Source of the DNA: a virus
Lineage: Duplodnaviria; Heunggongvirae; Uroviricota; Caudoviricetes
Virus record (IMG/VR): IMGVR_UViG_3300049919_000267
Span: 38,379 to 102,378 of that record
Length of the DNA: 64,000 nucleotides
Reading direction: 5' to 3' (one strand)
Program-made: the position numbers and the translations under genes
Part shown: positions 6,957 to 63,255 of the stretch, in pieces
Numbering within the stretch: position 1 is the first letter of the stretch
Layout: every line of letters begins with the position of its first letter
The notes under the pieces: generated by a model
What the model saw: only the letters and a program-made list of their open reading frames with translations
The model's database searches: none
Told to the model about the DNA's origin: nothing

Positions 6957-9900
6957 TTATTGTTGACTTAAACTTTTATACTTACCAAGATGAGGCATAG
7001 ACTCAATAATATCTGCATAGGAAGCTCCTTTTTTCATAGCTTCTCTAGCCTTAATAATATCATCTAAATCTGAATTATTTATTTCAGTCTTACTCTCAGT
7101 ACCATCTTTTGAAGTTTTCTTAATTATTTTGTCTACTCCCTGTTGAGCTGCCATAAGTCCAAATTGTTGAGCTTCTCCTTCATTAAACTTCTGCACAACA
7201 TTATCAGGATTAAAAGTAACATTCCCTTTTTTGTCAAATCCATAATGCTTAAATAGGTTTGCATAAGCATTGTAAGTTTTATTTTCCAAATTATTTTGAA
7301 GTACTTTACCTGAAATACTGGTAAATGCAGCCATACCTTCTTTTCTTGTATTAAATTGAGCTTGAGCTTGTCTATTCTGTTGATCAGCAATAAGGGCCAA
7401 ATTCTTAATTCTGGCATCATTTAAAACATCCACATTCTGTCCATACACACCAAGCTTTTGAGTAGCATTACCCTGAATCTCTTGCATATTATAAGCCTCA
7501 TCTGCTTTATATTTTTGAGCTGCAAGCTGACTTAAAGCATCAATATTACCAGTTTGTTCAGCTATCTTAGCTACTTGATTGAAAGAAGATTGATTTTCAT
7601 TTCTACCAAGTTGATAACTTAAATCAAAAGTTTGCTTTAATTCTGGTTGATAACTCTGCCTAAATACAGGCTCCTGTTTGTTTGTAGCTATTGTGAGAAG
7701 TTCAGGAGCTATTTGTTCAAGAGCTAATGGAGATAAAAATCCTCTTTCTCTGCCACCACTTCCAATATTTACCTTATCTGAGAATGTTGTAGGATTTTTA
7801 TTTGCCTTACCATACTGTGTATCTACAGAAGGATCTATCTCAGTTATTGGTGCATATTTTGGTTGAAAATCGTTAGTAGTCACTGTATTTGTTTGTGTTG
7901 TTTTTGTTGTTTGAGTTGGAGTATTTGTAGCTGCATAACCATTTCCACTACCATAATGAGATAAAAATTTTTTAACATATACATTACCAGTGGTTCCAAG
8001 ATCATCTTTAGCACTACCACCTGCTGAAGTAGGTCTACCAGTAAACCAAACAGAAGCTACATCTTGAGCATTATTATGTTTACTATAAATTTTCTTCATT
8101 TGAAATGTAGCAATTTTATCTTGTAAGGCTTCACTATTTAAAAATTCCTCTTCAGTAACCTCTTTACCAAGTGCTTCTTTTGACCACTCTTTTAAATTTC
8201 CCGGCATAATTTGATATTTACCAAGGGCTTTTTGTCCCTTATATCTACCTTTTGTCACTTGTGGGCCTTTTATTTTGTAATCTCCGGAACTTTCAATTGC
8301 TGCAATAGCCTTTGCAATCTTTTGAATATCTTCTTCATCTCCAGGAACAGTGCCACCATTAGCCATAACTCTACCACCATATTCCATCTTATCTGAATTT
8401 GAATCTAATAAGCCTAAAATAATATTCTGATAGGAAGCTAGTGCTTCTTTTTTCTCAACAATTTGTTTAGATTGATTATCAAGAGATTGAAACATAACTT
8501 TTGCAGTAGAGATAGCACTTTGTTGATACGTATCTGCTACATTAGCTTTATTTAATATAGTTAAATACTTTTCTTTAGTTCTATCAACTTTACTCTCTTC
8601 TTTAGCAATATCTTTTGCTACATTTCTAAAAGTCTTATTAGTACCAGGCAGTTTCAACTTACCAAATATATTTAACCCACCCTCTTGATCTATAAATCCA
8701 ACTTCTTTATTTTCAACTTCAGCTATTTTTTGGCCATATTGAATTCCTATACCACCTTCTTTATGTTCTTTACCTACAAATTCAATCATTGGATTAGAAT
8801 GATCAGAGTTAGATAAAGTTTTAGTTTTACCACCATCAGTAATCTGAAGTTGGTTATCACCTTCAAGTGATCCACCATTTTTCATAATAGCTTGAGATCC
8901 TGTACCTTCTAGATAAGGATTAATACTAGGGGTAAAAAGTTCATCCATAATAGACTTTCTATTATTTTTTCTATTTTCTTTATTTGCTTGATTTTTACCT
9001 AAGAATGAATTTAAAGCAGTCATTCCAGTACTTGCTAACATCTCTACTTGATTCTTAGTTTCATCTCTTTTATTAGATGTCATAAGATTATCAGCAGATA
9101 CTTTATCTGCAAGTGTTTGTTGAGCTTCCGGAGTAGTTGTTTCACCATCATTATTTACATATTTACCAGTACCCTCCAGTTGTTTATTCCCATTTTTACC
9201 ATCTACAACATCATAGTATTGGGATAATGGAATTATATCAGGTTGTTGTGATACATTTCCTTTTTGATCTACTCTAAAAATTTGTTGTTCTTTTGTATTA
9301 TCCGGATGAAGAGGATTTTGTTGTTGAATATTTTGAAATATATCAATTCCAGTATTTTTAACATTTTTTAATTCTTCAGGATCTTCAGGGCCAACTTCAC
9401 CACCTAAAGCAAAGTATCCTTCATTCTCAAGAACATTTTTATTTTGAAGTCTTCTTTGTACATTAGTATAAATACTACCATAAGAAGCTGGCTTAAAAGA
9501 TGGATCTAAAAATTTATCATCTTTTAAATACCCTTTTTCATTATAAGAAGAAATCATTTTTTGCATATTACCAATACCACCATTATACCCAGCAAGAGTA
9601 AAAAAGTCTCTTTGTTTATCAGAGAATTTTAAATTCTGTGCTTTTTCATATGTAGATAGTCTATCTTGAGTATCTCTAATCATAGCAGCTTTAGCAATAA
9701 GAGCATCCTGATCTGTTGCAAATGCAGCAGTTTTAATTTTCTCTTTCTTTTCATTTAATGCTTCATAAGGAGTAAATCTATTGGTAAAATCCTTTGGAAG
9801 ATAGCCTTTATCTATTAAACCTTGATAATTTTCACCAAATCTATCAAGACCATAGTTATAAAAACCATCCACTTTGTATTGACCAGCAAGTTTTGAATTC

Positions 9901-10220: not shown

Positions 10221-13200
10221 TTATTTATGAGATACTTGTGATGAAGCAAATACAAATTTTGAAATAAATTTATACCTATCAAATTTATCATTAATATGCC
10301 TAATTTTCAAATCTTTTGCCCTTAGTTTATTTTTTTGAAAAGATCTATTAGTGTAATCAAATTTATCACTATTAAGTTCTTTATTTACTGATCTATTTTC
10401 GCAAGAGTCTACCCAGATTGGATAATGATTATTAGGATTTTTAACTACATCCCAAAAAGTATTATAGTTAAAGAAATTATCAGACTTTGTATAAATAATA
10501 TCCTTTGAATCTTTATTAAAGATAGGGTATTTAAAATACAAATTCATCTGTCCTTTTGGTTTAGGGAAAAGATTTAATACTCCTGAAGTCTGTTGGTTAT
10601 TGTAAAGAATAGCTTTATTAAAATAAACATTATCATTTATCTCATAAAAATCATTTTCATTATAATATTCTAAGATTGTAGTATAGTCTTTTACATTCTG
10701 AAGGATTTCATCCTGAGCTTTAAACACAAAAGGATATTCAAGAATATATGGATATAGTTTTCCATAGAATCTTTGAAAACTTGTGTGTACTAGATTATGA
10801 ACCCAAACACTTGCTTTTTGATTGTTTAATATTGCATTTTTACCAGTCAGAAACGTACCATTTAAACCTATATAAAAATCAGGAATATAGCTGTGTAAAC
10901 TAATCCAAGATTTAGTACTTGGTGAATAGCTAATAGTCCAAGACTTATTACAAAAGTATAAGGGATCTCCTATAACAACTTCCATATTATTATACTTAAA
11001 CTTACCATAATAAGCATCATAAGTCATACCATCTCTATACTCTGCTTTTGGCTCATAATCAAGTTTAGTAATAATAAATCTGTTATACCCACTATCCCAA
11101 ACTCCACAAAGACCAATGCCATTAAAATGATTGTCTAAATTTATATTTGAAAAATATTTAGATATATTAAATTCAAGATTTCTACCAAGCCATTTACTCA
11201 TACCAATATCGGAAATAGGAGTTACTCCACTACCACTGATTAAAAATACCGAACCTCTTTTAGCATCAATAAACAAGTGTCCAGCTTCTGTCTTTAAAAA
11301 CAAATGATGCTGAGAACCTGCATATCCTTGGTCTGTTTCACCAAAATCTATTGGTTGTGTTTTAAATATATCATCATTACCTAAGTAAGCATTTTTTCCA
11401 GAGCTTGTTTGAATAGTACTCAAAGCATTGTATACATAAGACTTATTTTCAAATCTTACAAGAACCTGAGAATTATCAATAGTGTCTACACTAATTAATT
11501 TACCATAGTTTTTAGGGAAATCCGATTTAGAAATTGGCTTATATATCCTCCATTTGTTTGGATCAGAATAAATAATTCTATGTGTATAATCTTGTTGACA
11601 TTCTTCTTGAGGGTCAAAATTTAAAGGTAGATGAGAGAAGAAATTTTCTTTATTTTGTTTAGAATATGTTTTATTATAGATATAATAATTATCATGAACA
11701 ATAGGGTTATTAGTTTCTTGTAACCAATCATTTGGTATACCAGTACCAATATTAGGAAAATAATCTTTTTCCATATTATTACCAGCTTGTCTCATATCCA
11801 CATTAACTTCAGACTCTACAAAAAAGTAAGCAATCCCATATGAATATAAATAGATTCTACCATTTTGATAGAAAAGTTTATTTGTATTACCATCAAGATT
11901 AGCTTGTGGTACTCCAAGGATAGATTTCATAAGTCCTTTAAATCCTGAACCTGGAGTTTGAGTAGAACTTGTATTATACCAATATCTAACTCTACCTACA
12001 TTAGATAATGCTGAATAGTCTATATCAGCACCATTAGGCTTATCTACTGCTGTGTCAATAAAATAACTAAGTTTTCTTTTAAGTCCAAATCTATTAATAA
12101 AAATATCCCCACCAAAAATATTATCAGTTTGATTAGTGTAGTCATTATTAAGATCTATTAAACCACAATATCCAGTATCAACTGTATTATAAGTATAAAT
12201 ACCACCATATTGATCTAAAAGTTTTCTTTTATGACTGGCATAGTAACTAAGAACATTAGAATATATTTGTTTATCTGTATTATAATCAACTCTACTATCG
12301 TCTTCTTCTAATGTTCCTATGATAGTAGGAGAATTTGGAAATAATGGAAATGTTAAAGTCTGATCTGTTCTAAAAAACACAGAACTTTCTCTCTTCCAGT
12401 TATTAATTGGAAAAACATCACCAAGGGTTTGATAACCTGGATTAAGATAATAAGCTTTATCTAATTTTCTTTGCTTACTACCTGAATTTGGAATAGAATT
12501 AAATTGATTATATAAACCAATAGCATTATACTGATAAGCATAATTTTTATATGGGATTAAGTTTTCTATAAGTTCTTTAAATTGCTTGTTCCAAAATAAT
12601 GATTTTTCAGCTATTGTTCCTAAAGATGGGAAATCCGGGTAATAAGCAGTATATGTAACACCAGGAGTGGTTCCTATAACATGAGGTTTTGGTTCTAGAG
12701 CAAACAAAGCTCCAATAGTTATTCCTGCCAATAAAGCTATTCCTGCGCTAAATCCAGACATAAGTTTATGTCCTGCATGATCTTTTACTTGTACAAAATT
12801 GCCTATACTTGGCCCACCTTCTAAAGTTTCAAATTTAAGAATACTTCCTAAAAATGGCTGAAAGAAATGAGTGTCAGGAGAGTGAAAAGTAAATCTACTT
12901 CTTGAAAAAGCAGAATCATTTACTACAGAACCAGTACAACTAATTAATCCAAGATCTACTAAAGCATCATTGTAATCTGCGTAACCATCAACAATTGCAG
13001 CATTAGTAGAGACAACAGTATTATTTTCAGTAAGTATACTAGATAGATCAGTTCTGAGTGTAAAAATATCAGTAGCACTTGGATGAGTATTAAGTGTAAC
13101 TGCATTTGTATTAACATAAGCAACAATAGCTGCAAAATTAATCATTGCAGCAGATCCACTTACATCATCAAGTGCATCTAAATAATTATTCATTAATGTT

Positions 13201-38323: not shown

Positions 38324-38399
38324 TGGTGGTGAAAGTTGGATTTGAACCAACGACCAACAGATTTTCAGTCTGTCACTCTACCAACTGAGTTATCTCACC
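38324..38399 (-). tRNA. tRNA-Phe (GAA), CCA encoded
   Basis: GGTGAGA / TTTCACC acceptor stem, D-arm ACTC…GAGT, anticodon stem ACAGA/TCTGT with loop CUGAAAA, T-loop TTCAAAT, terminal ACCA. Confidence 0.75.
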
Positions 38400-54675: not shown

Positions 54676-54762
54676 TTTCTATTGGCTGAGAGGATTAAGG
54701 CAAGGGGTATTGAATCCCCTGACTTCGGAAGAAGTCCAAGAGTTCGAATCTCTTATAGAAAA
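54676..54762 (+). tRNA. tRNA-Ser (UGA), type II with a long variable arm
   Basis: TTTCTAT / ATAGAAA acceptor stem, anticodon loop AUUGAAU, variable arm GACTTC-GGAA-GAAGTC, T-arm AAGAG-TTCGAAT-CTCTT. The D-arm is short with a G·U pair. Boundaries are about ±2 nt. Confidence 0.6.
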
Positions 54763-54798
54763 CAAGTTTTGCTGCATTTTCCTTAGAAAAATCAGAGG

Positions 54799-55307: not shown

Positions 55308-55379
55308 ATTCCTGTGGCTTAATTGGTAGAGCATCCCCCTGAAAGGGGAAGGTTGTAGGTTCGAGTCCTACCAGGCATC
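55308..55379 (+). tRNA. tRNA-Phe-like (GAA) with stem mismatches
   Basis: D-arm GCTT…GAGC, anticodon loop CUGAAAG (GAA) on a CCCC/GGGG stem with a C·A mismatch, T-arm GTAGG-TTCGAGT-CCTAC. The acceptor stem has one T·C mismatch. An alternative fold gives a 6-nt anticodon loop. Confidence 0.45.
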
Positions 55380-55414
55380 CTGAATTATTTTTAATATAAA
55401 ACTTCAAATTCAAA

Positions 55415-56321: not shown

Positions 56322-56924
56322 ATGTTAGAAATACAAAACTATGAATCTCTTAATTTTACAGATCATCAAATGGAGTTCATGTCTTATGCTAAAAATCATT
56401 ATGTTAAACAGTTAAAAGAAGCACAAGTACCTGAAAATGAATCTACCATTGCTATATTAAGAACTATTGATGAAATAAATACTGAAAATTTAGAAAAAAA
56501 GAAAGATGAAATGATTCCATCATGTAAAAAAGGTTGTGCACATTGTTGCTACATACAAGTTGGAATGACTTTAAGAGAAGCAAATCTTATTAAAGAGTAT
56601 GTAGATACGTTTCATATTCCAGTAGATAAAGAGAAACTTAAAATACAAGCCCAAATTGAAAATGAAAAAGAATATCTTATATCTCCAAATAGGAGATGTG
56701 TATTCTTAGGACAAAATAATCTTTGTACTATTTATGAAGTAAGGCCTTCAGCCTGTAGAAATTACTTTGTGTTTAATCCTAAAGAAGATTGCGATACATT
56801 TAATGATAAAACTACTGGAAAAACTCTGGTAAATTTTGACTTAGAATCAGTTGCACCTATCATGGCTCTTATGAGCATATCTCCAACAAATACATTACCT
56901 AGACAATTATTAAAAATATTATAA
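56322..56924 (+). CDS. YkgJ-family (UPF0153, CxxCxxCC zinc/iron-chelating domain) protein (200 aa)
   Basis: …SCKKGCAHCCY… followed by …RRCVFLGQNNLCTIYEVRPSACRNYF… (family signature C-x-FL…C-x-IY-x-x-RP-x-x-CR-x-[FY]). Confidence 0.6.
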   Translation: MLEIQNYESLNFTDHQMEFMSYAKNHYVKQLKEAQVPENESTIAILRTIDEINTENLEKKKDEMIPSCKKGCAHCCYIQVGMTLREANLIKEYVDTFHIPVDKEKLKIQAQIENEKEYLISPNRRCVFLGQNNLCTIYEVRPSACRNYFVFNPKEDCDTFNDKTTGKTLVNFDLESVAPIMALMSISPTNTLPRQLLKIL

Positions 56925-58465: not shown

Positions 58466-59260
58466 ATGGCAGAAGTAAAAATGGATCTTGCTGAACTAGA
58501 AGATATTAAAAATCAAATAGTTAAGCAAAAAAAGATAGTTTCTGAAAAAGAAGAAGTTATCAAACAAAAAGAAAAAGAACTTGCTGAAGCTTATGCTGAT
58601 AAAAGAACTGTACAAATTACTAAAACCAGTAAACCTGTACCAAGTTGGGATTTTCATGCAAATTCAATTAATAGTAGAATAGAACATTCAGATTTTTCTT
58701 ATGGAAATGAATATGTTGGTAAAATATTTTCTTTTATAAAACAAAAAGATTATATGAGACTTTCTGAAAATTCTCTTTATGAAAATATCAAAGAGACTAT
58801 TAATCAACTTGTTTTTAATATAAGTGCAAGAGGAGATATGCAAAGAAAAAATGTTCCTATAACTTATGAAGAAATTGTAACAAAAGAGTTTATAAACTTT
58901 GATGATGTACTTGGAGATCTTAGAGAAAAAGCTGAAGTAAGTTTTATTAATGAAATCAATTCTTATAAAACTAAAATTCATACTTTAGAAGGGACAGTAA
59001 GTGATCTTCAGAATAAAATTACTGATACTACTAAAGTTGCAAATAAAAAGATTGATGAAATTATCGAAAGTTATGAAACTAAATTACAAGATAATTCAGT
59101 AAAAGCTAGAAAAGAATATGAAATTCTTTCAAAAGCTTTTAGTGATTACAAAGAAGACAAAGATACCAGAAACCTTCAAAAACAGATTTTTGATCTTAAA
59201 ACAGAACTTGAAGAAGAAAGACAAAAAAAGTGGTATCAAAAAATAATAAAAAATAAATAA
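58466..59260 (+). CDS. Coiled-coil protein (264 aa)
   Basis: ORF track. Glu/Lys-rich heptads. Confidence 0.55.
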   Translation: MAEVKMDLAELEDIKNQIVKQKKIVSEKEEVIKQKEKELAEAYADKRTVQITKTSKPVPSWDFHANSINSRIEHSDFSYGNEYVGKIFSFIKQKDYMRLSENSLYENIKETINQLVFNISARGDMQRKNVPITYEEIVTKEFINFDDVLGDLREKAEVSFINEINSYKTKIHTLEGTVSDLQNKITDTTKVANKKIDEIIESYETKLQDNSVKARKEYEILSKAFSDYKEDKDTRNLQKQIFDLKTELEEERQKKWYQKIIKNK

Positions 59261-59270
59261 TAAAAACAAA

Positions 59271-59414
59271 ATGGCAAAATTAAAATTATCAGAGATCAAA
59301 TTTGGAATGATTCTTAAAATGAAAACAGATGCGTTTGCAGCTTATGAATATGCTAAAGGAGATCCTGTACAAGTTGTATACCTTCAAGGAAATAACATCC
59401 AGTGTAATGATTAA
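59271..59414 (+). CDS. Small ORF (47 aa), not in the ORF track
   Basis: Hand-read: MAKLKLSEIKFGMILKMKTDAFAAYEYAKGDPVQVVYLQGNNIQCND*. Confidence 0.35.
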   Translation: MAKLKLSEIKFGMILKMKTDAFAAYEYAKGDPVQVVYLQGNNIQCND

Positions 59415-59424
59415 AAACTAAACC

Positions 59425-59811
59425 ATGAAATTAAATCAAACTCAAACAGAAGCTCTTATTGATGACTTTATTGAAAAAAATAATGATAAAGTAAAAAAAG
59501 AGTTAGAAGTTATTAAAAAATCTCCTGAATTTAAGTCACAAGTTAATAAACTTCAAAAAGCTTTAAAAAGTATTGACCCAGCAGCTTTGAAATATTTAAA
59601 ATCTGATAGTTTTGTAATCCCAGGTATTCAACATATTGAAAACTACTTGATTCAGACCTATCAATTTACATCTAAAACAAAAACTAAAAAAATTGATAAT
59701 TGGGGGAATACAAGAACAAAATACAAACAAGCCCTTACTTTAGCTTCTATTGAAAAAACTTCTATAGAAGAGTTAATAAAAGTTCTTGAAGATGTTAAGA
59801 TTTCTAATTAA
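59425..59811 (+). CDS. Hypothetical protein (128 aa)
   Basis: ORF track. Confidence 0.5.
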   Translation: MKLNQTQTEALIDDFIEKNNDKVKKELEVIKKSPEFKSQVNKLQKALKSIDPAALKYLKSDSFVIPGIQHIENYLIQTYQFTSKTKTKKIDNWGNTRTKYKQALTLASIEKTSIEELIKVLEDVKISN

Positions 59812-59831
59812 ATACTTTTAACTTTTAAAAT

Positions 59832-60232
59832 GGGTCTGACAGGCATTTGACAGCAATGGATTGGAATTATGGGTATGCAGGGAGAATGATTCTATACTTC
59901 CTTGATAAATGTGAATCAAATCTAGATGTAGAAGTATCTAACATCACCGTAGGTGCAGAAGGAAACATTGATAGCTTATTAGCTTCTTTGTCTTATTCAG
60001 TTGAGTCTGAGCTTGCTCTGGCTTAATTCACCCCCAGAACTCTATGGGTATAAATGAGAACTTTTTCTTTTGGTATATTCTTCAAATAAGAATCTACTCT
60101 GAATATTAACCTGGCTTAACAGTAAATTAGCTAAAGGCCTTTGGAGCAGTAGGACTGCTATCCTAAGCATATAAGTCAACCATAATTACTTTACAATGTA
60201 TGGACAAGGGTTCGACTCCCTTCAGATCCACC
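59832..60232 (+). ncRNA. ssrA: tmRNA (ssrA-like transfer-messenger RNA), apparently phage-encoded
   Basis: The 5' GGGTCTG pairs with the 3' CAGATCC-A-CC. The 3' end GGACAAGGGTTCGACTCCCTTCAGATCCACC closely mirrors the E. coli tmRNA 3' end (GGACGCGGGTTCAACTCCCGCCAGCTCCACCA). An internal reading frame ends …SYSVESELALA-TAA at 60024-60026, with candidate resume codons GCA at 59955 or GCT at 59982. Length about 401 nt. Confidence 0.6.
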
Positions 60233-60307
60233 TTTAAAGCACAAGAGTTACGTCCTCTCTCTTGAGGTAAGAATAGATTCTTATTCTTATCTGAACAAAG
60301 AGGTTAG

Positions 60308-60391
60308 GGGCAAGTGGTGGAATTGGCAGACACACAAACTTCGATGTTTGTTCTTAACAGAGTATAGGTTCGAATCCTATTTTGTCCACCA
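60308..60391 (+). tRNA. Type II (long variable arm, Leu/Ser-like) tRNA with an aberrant anticodon loop. Isotype unresolved; CCA encoded.
   Basis: D-arm TGGTGGAATTGGCAGACAC (Leu-like), T-arm ATAGG-TTCGAAT-CCTAT, acceptor GGGCAAG / TTTGTCC (2 G·U), terminal ACCA. The anticodon region ACAAAC-TTCGAT-GTTTGT folds as a 5-bp stem with either a 6-nt loop (UUCGAU) or an 8-nt loop (CUUCGAUG), never a canonical 7-nt loop. Confidence 0.5.
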
Positions 60392-60534
60392 GGGTTATTT
60401 CTTACACTTTCCCGTAAAAAAAGTGTCAAGTGGTGTAGGTAACTAGATAAAAAAAATCTGGTAGCCCCAAACCCCCGGAGAAACAAACTTCTCTGGGGTT
60501 TTTTATAAATCTAATACAAAACAAAACAGCAATT

Positions 60535-60828
60535 ATGAAAAGGATTAAATATTTTTTTAACAGTGCATTAATTATGGCTGGAATCTATATAATATTATCA
60601 ATACTTTTTCTTATTCTACAGTGGTATTCAAATATTGAAGCTAATATTGAATTTTATTTAAAGTATGACACTTATATACAACTTTTTAAGATTATTATAG
60701 ATATACTTGAAATAATTATTAGAGGTTGTTTTTGGTTATCTGTTGCATTATTTATGATTTACGAACTAGATAAATATGATGAAAAAGGAAATTTAATTGA
60801 TATTGAAACCAAAAAAGAAAACATATGA
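60535..60828 (+). CDS. Small membrane protein (97 aa, 2-3 TM)
   Basis: ORF track. Hydrophobic helices. Confidence 0.5.
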   Translation: MKRIKYFFNSALIMAGIYIILSILFLILQWYSNIEANIEFYLKYDTYIQLFKIIIDILEIIIRGCFWLSVALFMIYELDKYDEKGNLIDIETKKENI

Positions 60829-61520
60829 GACAAATGGAATTCAGTTCTGATGAACAAGTAAAAAAATCTTATGAGTTTCTTAATAGTTTGAATCAACCAG
60901 CTTGTGAAGGATGTAATCATGGTATAAGGATGTGCTATAATACTCCTTGTATGGGAACAGTAGAAGATTTTGAAAAACTTATAGAAGCTGGCTATGCAGG
61001 ATCTCTTATGTTAGATCATTGGTGTGGTGGACATATGAATGGTAATCCTTTTAAAGAAGATGTACTTTATTTAGCACCAGCTATAGAAAACAAACAAAAA
61101 CAAGCTGCCCCATTTATAAGATCTGGAAAGTGTGCATTATTAATTAATAATAAATGCAGTCTTCATGATTTAGGACTAAAACCTATACAAGGAAAATCTG
61201 TTTGTTGTAAACTTGAAAGAGTTTATAAAGATGAAAATGGGGAAAATAAAGCAATTGAAGAAAGATTTCTTATTCTTCATACATGGAATACTCAGAAAGG
61301 ACTGGATCTTATTGAAAAATGGAAAAAAGAAGTTAATTTTAAAACAGAAAGTGGAGATGAAGAAATAGATAAAAAAGATCCTTTTCTTTTTCTAAGTCTT
61401 CTTGTAGAACAAATACAAAAATTTGAAGAAATTGAAAAAAAAGAAAAAACAGGTGAAATGCCACTGTACACTCCACTAACAGAGCCACGAAAAATAATCG
61501 AATACACAAAACCTTATTAA
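60825..61520 (+). CDS. YkgJ-family-like Cys-rich protein (231 aa), paralog of 56322..56924
   Basis: …PACEGCNHGIRMCYNTPC… and …GKCALLINNKCSLHDLGLKP… align with …RRCVFLGQNNLCTIYEVRPSAC… of the first copy. Acidic C-terminal tail. Confidence 0.5.
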   Translation: MRQMEFSSDEQVKKSYEFLNSLNQPACEGCNHGIRMCYNTPCMGTVEDFEKLIEAGYAGSLMLDHWCGGHMNGNPFKEDVLYLAPAIENKQKQAAPFIRSGKCALLINNKCSLHDLGLKPIQGKSVCCKLERVYKDENGENKAIEERFLILHTWNTQKGLDLIEKWKKEVNFKTESGDEEIDKKDPFLFLSLLVEQIQKFEEIEKKEKTGEMPLYTPLTEPRKIIEYTKPY

Positions 61521-61753: not shown

Positions 61754-61987
61754 ATGTTTAATCAAAAAAGAACCTTAACCAATCTTGAAAAGAGAAGCGA
61801 AGCTATTTTTAGTGTTTTTACAAAAACACAAGAAGATTGCAAAATTTTAAACCAGGAAATTTCAGGAGTAATATCTGAAAAACAAGAAGTAATTTTAGAT
61901 CTTCAATCAGAAGTACAGTCCCTGGAAAACATCAAAGCTAAAAACACTAATTTAGCTGACAAAATCAATAAATTTTTAACTACTTAA
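61754..61987 (+). CDS. Small coiled-coil protein (77 aa)
   Basis: ORF track. Confidence 0.45.
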   Translation: MFNQKRTLTNLEKRSEAIFSVFTKTQEDCKILNQEISGVISEKQEVILDLQSEVQSLENIKAKNTNLADKINKFLTT

Positions 61988-62019
61988 TCAATAAATTTTT
62001 AACTACTTAATTTAAAAGT

Positions 62020-62412: not shown

Positions 62413-63255
62413 ATGGGACTCAAAACAAAATTAATTTTAATTGCAGTTGGATTAGTATTATTACTAAGTTCACTAGGTATAGGATGTGAAAGAATTGATG
62501 CCGGAAGTGTTGGGATTAAAGTAAACATGACTGGTGGAACACAAGGTATTGCAAAGACAGAATATGTAACTGGTTGGTGTTTTTATTGGAGATTAGCACA
62601 AAAAGTGTATGAATTCCCAACTTATCAACAACATAAAGAATATGATCCATATGAAGTACCTGCAAAAGGAGGAACTATGTTTACTGTTCATCCTACATTT
62701 AATTATAATTTAAATGCTGGTGAAGTAGGTAATATGTTTCAAAGATACCGATTAGGACTCTCAACATTAGAAAATGGTTTTATTAAGAATTCTATGACTA
62801 CAGCTATTAGGGAAGTAACTAATACTTTTACAGCAGATAGTATTTTAAATAATCAAGCCGGGTATGATGCAGCTATTTATAATAAATTAAATAAAGAATT
62901 AGCACCTTATTTTCAAGTAACTCAGTTTACTGCTAATCTTATTCCTGATCCAAACTTAAAAGCTTCTATTATTAATAAAGCAAAAGCTGTACAGGATGCT
63001 CAAGCTGCAATAGCTCAACAATCTGTAACAAGAGCTAATGCTGAAATTGATATTATTAATGCTAAAAAAGATTCTGTTGTAACTATGACAGCAGCTCTAG
63101 CTGAAGCTAATTCTATGCGAGCTAAAAATGAAGCTTTAAAAGAATCTCCACAATTGGTAGAATACACTAAAGCTTTAAAATGGAATGGAGTATTACCAAG
63201 TACTATAATGGGAGGAAGTGGGGCTGTTCCTTTCTTTAACATAAACAAACAATAA
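62413..63255 (+). CDS. SPFH/band-7 domain lipoprotein (280 aa), second SPFH paralog in the window
   Basis: Lipobox-like …LSSLGIGC…, then an SPFH-like core and a C-terminal Ala/Gln-rich coiled coil (…AKAVQDAQAAIAQQSVTRANAEIDIINAKKD…) typical of HflK/C-type proteins. Confidence 0.55.
   Translation: MGLKTKLILIAVGLVLLLSSLGIGCERIDAGSVGIKVNMTGGTQGIAKTEYVTGWCFYWRLAQKVYEFPTYQQHKEYDPYEVPAKGGTMFTVHPTFNYNLNAGEVGNMFQRYRLGLSTLENGFIKNSMTTAIREVTNTFTADSILNNQAGYDAAIYNKLNKELAPYFQVTQFTANLIPDPNLKASIINKAKAVQDAQAAIAQQSVTRANAEIDIINAKKDSVVTMTAALAEANSMRAKNEALKESPQLVEYTKALKWNGVLPSTIMGGSGAVPFFNINKQ

Follow-up and report, generated by a model that had tools for sequence, protein, structure and literature searches.

The DNA analysed here, the window, is a stretch of 64 kb (64,000 nucleotides, nt) of a tailed phage genome of ~102 kb, and corresponds to positions 38,379 to 102,378 of the IMG/VR record IMGVR_UViG_3300049919_000267. 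On its plus strand it carries a gene for transfer-messenger RNA (tmRNA, ssrA), which begins 20 nt past the stop of an open reading frame (ORF) of 128 amino acids (aa), and has phage ORFs and tRNA genes on both sides.

59832..60232, plus strand: one-piece tmRNA (ssrA) gene, recognised by ARAGORN, by Rfam RF00023, and by homologs in ~12 related phage contigs

ARAGORN calls a tmRNA at 59832-60232 (+), with the predicted tag AEGNIDSLLASLSYSVESELALA and a stop, the C-terminus of which reads ...SYSVESELALA. The Rfam model RF00023 matches 59832-60233 over its full span (1-374) with a score of 57.8 bits, above the gathering score of 47, and an E-value of 4.8e-20 in the whole window, or 6e-22 in a local search. 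The original prediction, which was made from the letters of the sequence, had placed a tmRNA at exactly the coordinates returned by ARAGORN, and the covariance model that it proposed as a check gave a significant match. The features that it had read from the sequence are all present, that is, the pairing of the 5' GGGTCTG with the 3' CAGATCC, including a G3:U70 pair, the discriminator A followed by CC, and the internal frame ending in ...SYSVESELALA and a stop, as in the ARAGORN tag. It had also described the 3' end as nearly superimposable on that of Escherichia coli, which holds for the ~30 nt of the tRNA-like end, where the match to the Rfam consensus is good, but not beyond it, as blastn found no match to any E. 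coli genome.

By its RF00023 score, its tRNA-like domain (TLD), its helix P2, its pseudoknot 1 (PK1), and its tag frame, the segment belongs to the one-piece tmRNA family. The canonical C-terminal ...(Y)ALAA or LAA is missing from the tag, but bacteria often, though not always, have this ending, and its absence does not in itself exclude this membership. The mature 3' end requires completion of the CCA, since the genome reads discriminator A, CC, and then T (A-CC-T), without the final A, and the full CCA is encoded in no tmRNA homolog of the lineage. A two-piece (permuted) tmRNA was also considered and ruled out, given that the gene is collinear with the one-piece model and the two-piece model RF04321 gave only a partial match of 19 bits against a threshold of 47. 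The recoding of stop codons was rejected as well, with ORFs of up to 1,785 aa intact under code 11.

Secondary structure

The elements of the predicted fold are listed below, all on the plus strand; the prefix L denotes contigs compared with the window, and pairs are counted as compensatory where both sides change.

59832..59838: 5' strand of acceptor stem P1, GGGTCTG, pairing with 60223-60229; 100% paired in nine sequences, three of seven pairs compensatory
59865-59872: 5' strand of P2b, AATTATGG, pairing with 60180-60187; 93% paired, five of eight pairs compensatory
59874-59878: 5' strand of P2d, TATGC, pairing with 60167-60171; 100% paired, one pair compensatory
59879-59884 and 59897-59902: PK1 stem 1, AGGGAG/CTTCCT; 100% paired, three of six pairs compensatory
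59887-59892 and 59913-59918: PK1 stem 2, TGATTC/GAATCA; 98% paired, four of six pairs compensatory
60009..60042: tentative P5-like helix, GAGCTT/GAACTC, around the stop codon; read by eye, also in L011, L013, and L017
60032-60035 with 60045-60048: CCCA/TGGG, crossing the tentative P5-like helix; read by eye
60027..60166: region expected to hold pseudoknots 2-4 (PK2-4); sequence variable among relatives
60167..60187: 3' strand of P2d, GCATA, and 3' strand of P2b, CCATAATT, around the conserved internal loop TAAGTCAA; covariation with the 5' strands
60206..60230: T arm AAGGG-TTCGACT-CCCTT, acceptor 3' strand CAGATCC, and discriminator A60230; T stem 100% paired, four of five pairs compensatory

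Alignments of the whole tmRNA by MAFFT misaligned the acceptor and the variable 3' domain, and covariation was therefore tested on six helices (P1, P2b, P2d, the two stems of PK1, and the T stem), which were taken from nine distinct homologs with conserved motifs as anchors, and which align without gaps. In this test, P2 is represented by P2b and P2d; its innermost part, P2a, is irregular. Across the 37 pairs of the six helices, 98.2% of the cells are paired, and 20 of the pairs have changed on both sides. None of 500 shuffles was as good, while sliding the partner strand by 1-3 columns reduced pairing to 39-51%. Further compensatory variants of PK1 stem 2 are found in L026 (GGTC/GGCC) and L029 (GAGTA/TACTC). 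The G3:U70 pair, which is the identity element for alanine, is present in all nine homologs, and the motif TAAGCAT[AG]TAAG, at the 3' side of P2, in each of the 10 that were aligned, as well as being readable in L026 and L029. The tRNA-like and pseudoknot fold put forward by the original prediction thus stands for the TLD, P2, and PK1, which form and covary across the relatives, but is not confirmed for PK2-4.

Two insertions were observed in the relatives, one in L011 (tmRNA at 8172-8647), where ~86 nt are inserted between the 3' strand of PK1 stem 1 and that of stem 2, and the other of ~50 extra nt in the 3' domain of L013-15 (7273-7722 in L013). Judging from these sequences, the tmRNA scaffold of the lineage evidently tolerates large insertions.

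Distribution in a crAss-like lineage

As judged from its protein matches, the window is that of a distant crAss-like phage. Its minus-strand half encodes the large terminase (TerL), the portal, and the major head protein (PHROGs), the Pfam matches in the window include Crass_capsid and the crAss tail ring proteins 1 and 2 (CrAss_Ring_1, CrAss_Ring_2), and the TerL is closest to that of Leptolyngbya phage Lbo-JY46 (34% identity), with ~28% identity to the crAss-like gut phages and the crAss-like phages of Cellulophaga and Flavobacterium. The phage has no cultured close relative, as blastn, run with the tmRNA region and with 24 kb of the window, returned no DNA relatives among 50,697 GenBank phages. 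The first 50 kb of Lbo-JY46 contain one tRNA, and no tmRNA was detected there by ARAGORN or nhmmer.

Relatives were recovered through the 231-aa ORF that lies downstream of the tmRNA (60825-61520); among the 27 homologs of this ORF, several lie on contigs of 55-245 kb. One contig, of 102,378 bp, has an identical copy of this ORF and is probably the genome of this phage, and an identical tmRNA lies beside the upstream ORF in two other samples (L008, L009). In the more distant relatives, a tmRNA was found at the same position by ARAGORN, Rfam, or both in L010, L011, L017, L019, L020, and the short metagenome contig L016, and by blastn and inspection in L013-15, L018, and L023, which ARAGORN had missed; the tmRNA of L026 was found through a spurious ORF called over the tag, and that of L029 through a degenerate scan of IMG/VR for the tag peptide. 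These contigs make up a syntenic set of ~12 distinct tmRNA sequences, and the tmRNA is present in every relative for which the upstream DNA is available, even though the relatives that were fetched have only 42-56% identity in the neighbouring 231-aa protein. The conservation count covers the contigs that reach the tmRNA position, whereas L012, L021, L022, and L024 end before it. The tmRNA of L016, the sole return of the metagenome scan, is without its 5' acceptor strand.

A search of IMG/VR proteins with the neighbouring ORF at 58466-59260 returned no relative, an exact DNA pattern of the acceptor and T arm returned only unrelated tmRNAs from IMG/VR, and two lineage-specific DNA patterns had no match there. 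The degenerate tag-peptide search of IMG/VR recovered a single member of the lineage (L029), and the spurious ORF over the tag, used as a query against a protein database, returned two entries only. In the bacteria and archaea, an exact-pattern scan of 185,579 species representatives for the 3' motif of the lineage yielded one chance match, in an Anaerotignum metagenome-assembled genome, with no tmRNA, which suggests that the tmRNA has no close cellular counterpart among these representatives.

Some of the copies depart from the usual form. In two separate sub-lineages, L013/L014/L015 (~7273-7722) and L018 (8213-8606), the T loop UUCGAAU is replaced by AUCGUAC or AUCAUAC (AUCRUAC), in which positions 54 and 58 read A/U rather than U/A, and L013-15 also have a discriminator U; these copies retain the G3:U70 pair, PK1, and the tag frame. 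The Rfam scores of L018 (39.3 bits) and L023 (36.1 bits) fall below the threshold of 47, and L013 is missed. Altogether, ARAGORN misses L013-15, L016, L018, L023, and L026, and Rfam, at its gathering threshold, misses L013-15, L018, and L023; the resume codons called by ARAGORN are also inconsistent, as described below. Automated phage annotation therefore under-reports and mis-reports tmRNAs of this kind, and its tag calls need caution.

The tag reading frame

Two starting points may be considered for the tag, both on the plus strand and both leading to the same stop codon.

59928..60026: proposed tag frame, resume codon GUA 59928, stop UAA 60024-60026; encodes VEVSNITVGAEGNIDSLLASLSYSVESELALA, with the charged Ala added in front
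59955..60026: shorter tag frame of ARAGORN, resume codon GCA 59955, encoding AEGNIDSLLASLSYSVESELALA and a stop; selected at the peptide level

The sequences of the lineage clearly indicate that the frame at 59955-60026 is under purifying selection as a peptide, because the ratio of nonsynonymous to synonymous polymorphism (pN/pS) from the ARAGORN start to the stop (codons 11-33) is 0.43, the extra states in this frame number 29 at third codon positions against 17 and 11 at first and second positions, and synonymous codons are exchanged between families, with Ser as TCT or as AGC/AGT, and Leu as TTA, CTT, CTG, or CTA. The stop is conserved. The consensus of the tag in the lineage is ..S[NDS][IV][TQ]VG[DEA][NDE]GN[IVL][DE]..L.SLSY[ES]VE.[ED]L[AE][LFY]A followed by the stop, with exceptions in L017, which has a shorter middle, and L029, which ends in ...ELCFA. 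The endings ELALA, ELAFA, ELAYA, ELEYA, DLAFA, and ELCFA ([ED]L[AEC][LFY]A) bear out, for the whole lineage, the observation of the original prediction that the tag does not end in the common ALAA or YALAA.

Translation probably resumes at GUA 59928, which precedes the GCA called by ARAGORN by nine codons. Mapping by covariance alignment, which the original prediction had proposed, points to this codon, in that the RF00023 consensus AAAAAAUAAuU, followed by GCa, is aligned with high posterior probability to CAAAUCUAGAU, followed by GUA. The GUA also stands after a 9-nt spacer from PK1, and the resume codon of the E. coli tmRNA likewise lies 9 nt past PK1. The five bases ahead of the upstream site are [UC]A[GA]AU in all 12 sequences (in the context A[UC]A[GA]AU before the G), and the codon at this site always begins with G, being GUA in six sequences, GCA in five, and GAC in one. 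At the downstream site, by contrast, L020 and L029 have GUU-GGU ahead of the codon, with the loss of the A at -4 and the retention of Val (a synonymous change), and the indels between the two candidate sites (+3, +3, and +6 nt) are all in frame. The bases immediately before the resume codon are the segment that contacts SmpB (PMC8012679). The calls of ARAGORN are not consistent among the homologs, being downstream in the window, L010, L011, L017, and L029, and nine or ten codons upstream in L019 and L020, with tags that begin at AEG, DNG, ED, GEN, or 9-10 codons upstream.

The full tag, A-VEVSNITVGAEGNIDSLLASLSYSVESELALA, would have 33 residues, almost no basic residues, and a net charge of -5 (-5 to -8 in the relatives). 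This exceeds the 27 residues of the Mycoplasma pneumoniae tag, which has itself been called unusually long beside those of E. coli (11) and Bacillus subtilis (14; PMC8403727). An amphipathic helix was sought in 10 of the tags of the lineage, and was not significant in nine.

Interpretation

Given this, the element is quite probably a genuine phage one-piece tmRNA, inherited vertically within a lineage of ~70-130-kb crAss-like phages, which is neither host DNA nor an integration scar, and which would perform ordinary trans-translation with the factors of the host. From the direct observations, that is, the identity of the gene, the structure of the TLD, P2, and PK1, the conservation in the lineage, the selection on the peptide, and the absence of SmpB and integrase from the window, we infer its expression, charging, use of host SmpB, and exact resume codon, and the fate of the tagged proteins. 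The tmRNA would be transcribed along with the tRNA that follows it and the small early or middle genes nearby, trimmed in the manner of a tRNA, and its CCA end finished by the host. The alanyl-tRNA synthetase of the host would charge it with alanine through the invariant G3:U70 pair, and host SmpB and EF-Tu would carry it, in the infected cell, to ribosomes that have stalled on broken mRNAs, where translation would resume, most likely at GUA 59928, append the 33-residue acidic tag, and terminate at the UAA. Ribosomes would in this way be freed for the synthesis of phage proteins, and truncated products marked with the phage-specified C-terminus [ED]-L-[AEC]-[LFY]-A.

Host SmpB is the presumed partner because SmpB (PF01668) had no Pfam match among the 84 ORFs of the window, which also had none to an aminoacyl-tRNA synthetase or to an integrase or recombinase; nor was SmpB or any other translation factor found in the 64-kb window or in the ~10-kb flanks of the relatives. 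The tag is probably a degron, with a protease preference unlike that of the canonical LAA/ClpX signal. Its grammar is degron-like, in that it opens with polar or acidic residues, has a Tyr ~10 positions before its end, and closes with a hydrophobic stretch of which Ala is the last residue. The likely benefit is additional ribosome-rescue capacity in cells where mRNAs are cut by phage nucleases or by the RNA-targeting defences of the host, which would fit the large tRNA complement of the phage.

The 3' end of ssrA is the site of integration of many mobile elements, and the RF00023 score of the gene is modest (57.8 bits), with a low posterior probability in the middle of the alignment, which would be compatible with an origin from host ssrA, whether as the target or remnant of an integration or as a copy that was recently captured, is decaying, and has no function in the phage. 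This origin is nevertheless exceedingly improbable. As the original prediction had noted, there is no integrase or attachment-site remnant, given that none of the 84 ORFs is an integrase, the 25-nt 3' end of the tmRNA occurs once in the window (with 0 occurrences expected by chance) and has no second copy there even when three mismatches are allowed, and no att-like direct repeats were found flanking the gene. Its conclusion that this is a true phage gene, rather than a host ssrA target, is upheld by the position of the gene between phage ORFs and tRNAs, which is syntenic in every related contig examined, as well as by the compensatory changes and the purifying selection on the tag in ~12 divergent phage contigs, and the lack of a close bacterial match. 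Much of the same evidence bears on a second possibility, that the RNA acts mainly as a decoy, binding up the SmpB or EF-Tu of the host so that host trans-translation is shut down, with a tag frame that is incidental. TLD-only tmRNA-like genes are known in phages (PMC4131195), and are seen also in L001 and L006, no phage SmpB was found among the window ORFs, and the T loop is altered in some relatives, all of which would suit a decoy; the conservation of the mRNA-like domain, of PK1, and of the spacing of the resume codon, together with peptide-level purifying selection and indels that are only in frame, would not be expected of an untranslated frame, and make this reading highly unlikely.

Within a functional tmRNA, translation might instead resume at GCA 59955, to give the tag A-AEGNIDSLLASLSYSVESELALA (24 aa), with the upstream 27 nt serving as an RNA spacer. 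This codon is the choice of ARAGORN, is the canonical resume codon, and is preceded by UAGGU, comparable with the UAGUC of E. coli, and the coding statistics of the upstream 9-10 codons are weak; it lies, however, 36 nt from PK1 instead of ~10, has lost the A at -4 in L020 and L029, and varies among the homologs (GCA, GAC, GAA, GAU) as the ARAGORN call shifts, whereas the upstream site is uniformly A(A/G)AU before G, and is where the Rfam model puts the resume codon. A start at GCA 59955 thus appears unlikely. It is similarly doubtful that trans-translation is real but that the acidic tag is no degradation signal, and would protect, sequester, or re-route the tagged proteins, or hide the load of stalled ribosomes from the host. 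The ClpX motif LAA is absent, the tag is three times the length of that of E. coli, with a net charge of -5 to -8 and almost no basic residues, and conservation spans its whole length, but its grammar resembles that of known degrons, and the tags of the Mollicutes that end in NYAFA are degrons of Lon (PMC9382460, PMC8403727).

A number of points weigh against a functional phage tmRNA that resumes at GUA 59928 and adds a tag of its own. PK2-4 were not demonstrated in 60027-60166, where the Rfam posterior probability is low, the minimum free energy has z = 0.07 against shuffles, and the sequence is poorly alignable, and anchoring on conserved motifs biases the extraction of the helices somewhat toward the proposed structure, although, despite this bias, chance pairing is unlikely in view of how poorly the slid controls pair and of how many double changes arose independently. 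As a resume codon, GUA is unusual, and the first nine codons have a pN/pS of 0.78, with eight synonymous against 10 amino-acid alternatives, which is only suggestive. The altered T loop and discriminator U, and the low or missing Rfam scores, indicate that not every copy need be active. The absence of SmpB covers 64 kb of the ~102-kb genome, and a phage SmpB may lie elsewhere. A phage-specific tag, as the original prediction had suggested, finds support to the extent that its amino acids are conserved across the lineage and that the search for a close bacterial counterpart of the RNA found none, but the tag of the host may yet be similar.

A more speculative extension, which seems rather unlikely, is that the tagging is orthogonal to that of the host. 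The phage tmRNA would then outcompete the host tmRNA for SmpB, and replace the LAA degron with the 33-residue acidic tag, so that truncated proteins would pass to another protease (Lon, for example) or escape degradation. If so, ClpXP might be kept free, or the host left blind to the surge of stalled ribosomes that follows RNA cleavage induced by the phage or by a defence, and the neighbouring tRNA-like genes with abnormal anticodon loops might belong to the same counter-defence translation toolkit.

Relationship to other tmRNAs

The phage gene shares with the bacterial one-piece tmRNA (SsrA, RF00023; the 10Sa RNA of E. coli) a 7-bp acceptor with G3:U70 and a discriminator A, a T arm with a TTCGA loop, a GG-containing analogue of the D loop, a long P2, a PK1 that ends ~10 nt before a resume codon beginning with G, and a short frame that ends in hydrophobic residues and Ala, with UAA as its stop. 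It differs in its tag, of 33 aa rather than the 11 of E. coli, and ending in A-[LFY]-A rather than L-A-A, in the GUA resume codon of half of the lineage, in a P2d that is rich in U-A pairs (UAUGC/GCAUA), in PK2-4, which are not recognisable, and in the absence of both an SmpB gene from the window and a close bacterial sequence.

The original prediction had considered phage tmRNAs to be rare, which somewhat overstates the case, as they are a known category. Complete tmRNA genes are present in the Bxz1-like (cluster C) mycobacteriophages and Bacillus phage G (Hudson, Lau and Williams 2014, PMC4131195), and huge phages of more than 200 kb carry a tmRNA together with SmpB (Al-Shayeb et al. 2020, PMC7162821). 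The genes of the Bxz1-like phages and phage G, which are lytic, are likewise complete, lie beside large sets of tRNAs, and are not integration targets, but the present lineage is unrelated, with its crAss-like podophage module, a GC content of ~30% in the window, and no blastn similarity to GenBank phages. The huge phages also share a metagenomic source and the combination of ribosome-rescue components with many tRNAs, whereas the genome here is of ~100 kb, and no SmpB was found in the 64-kb window or in the ~10-kb flanks of the relatives.

The tags of the Mollicutes, which have 27 aa, end in NYAFA, and are degraded by Lon (PMC9382460, PMC8403727), resemble those of this lineage in being long, in having an aromatic or aliphatic residue before the terminal Ala (...LAFA, ...LAYA, ...LALA), and in lacking LAA. 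This likeness is one of C-terminal grammar only, not of sequence, and the phage tag is strongly acidic.

Mycobacteriophage DS6A has a different kind of gene, a TLD-only "mini-tmRNA", for which the titration of SmpB has been proposed as a role (PMC4131195). The window gene is not a TLD-only decoy of this type, because its mRNA-like domain is entire, PK1 is retained, and selection acts on its tag. Two DS6A-like genes of 81 nt were encountered in 111-kb GC-rich IMG/VR phage contigs, within a tRNA array, at 10374-10454 (-) in L001 and 10859-10939 (-) in L006; they have the same acceptor as the window gene (GGGTCTG/CAGATCC), no mRNA or pseudoknot domain, and an Rfam score of 60.4 bits, with no call by ARAGORN. 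Another tmRNA, with 101.7 bits in Rfam, lies at 6955-7314 of L007, an unrelated IMG/VR contig of 54.6 kb, and its tag, ASDPKRTGSLGPLVSRNF followed by a stop, is without the typical hydrophobic, Ala-rich ending.

In literature searches, no tmRNA gene turned up for crAss-like phages or the Crassvirales, and the presence of a tmRNA in every member examined of a ~70-130-kb crAss-like lineage, with a long, acidic, lineage-specific tag and a frequent GUA resume codon, therefore appears to be new. Phage tmRNAs have been catalogued for twenty years, and we know of none with a tested function. With ~12 divergent copies, compensatory changes, and selection on the peptide, this lineage provides unusually clean comparative evidence that a phage tmRNA is used, and that the phage specifies a tag of its own, unlike the standard bacterial degron. 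The purpose of a phage tmRNA thereby becomes accessible to experiment, through the fate of the tag, the competition for SmpB, and the resistance to RNA-cleaving defences.

Surrounding genes

Two further features follow the tmRNA on the same strand.

60308..60391, plus strand: type-II tRNA-like gene, "tRNA-??? (tcga)" in ARAGORN, 41.4 bits with the Rfam tRNA model; compared with the relatives
60473..60508, plus strand: intrinsic-terminator-like hairpin (60473-60498) and T run, the sole terminator-like site within 59200-60700

The tmRNA and the downstream tRNA-like gene probably form one transcription unit, ended by the hairpin at 60473-60508, as is suggested by the start of the tmRNA close behind an ORF, followed by the tRNA-like gene and then by the only terminator-like hairpin of the region. 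An equivalent hairpin follows the tRNA-Leu of L026, and the tRNA-like gene itself occupies the slot of a tRNA-Leu in the relatives. It has an anticodon loop of 6 or 8 nt (ACAAAC-TTCGAT-GTTTGT), a G3.U70 pair in GGGCAAG/TTTGTCC, and an encoded CCA.

This gene is one of the 16 tRNA or tRNA-like genes, in two arrays, that ARAGORN finds in the window, and one of three with anticodon loops of other than 7 nt, the others being those at 54676-54763 and 55308-55380 (all on the plus strand), which ARAGORN reports as "tRNA-???" with anticodons of four or two bases. Similar oddities are found in the relatives L013-15 ("acca"), L017 ("ccaa"), and L026 ("aa").

The small-gene arm of the plus strand (42000-64000) encodes two SPFH/Band-7 proteins (one at 62413-63255), a WGR-domain protein, a CxxCxxCC protein (56322-56924), and a SprT-like protein, and the WGR, CxxCxxCC, and SPFH genes adjoin the tmRNA in most of the relatives too. 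An ORF of this arm matches the PHROG "metal-dependent phosphohydrolase", and a guanosine-3',5'-bis(diphosphate) protein is annotated in Lbo-JY46. Finally, a perfect tandem duplication of 23 nt (two copies of AATCAATAAATTTTTAACTACTT) lies at 61963-62008, at the 3' end of, and just past, the ORF at 61754-61987.

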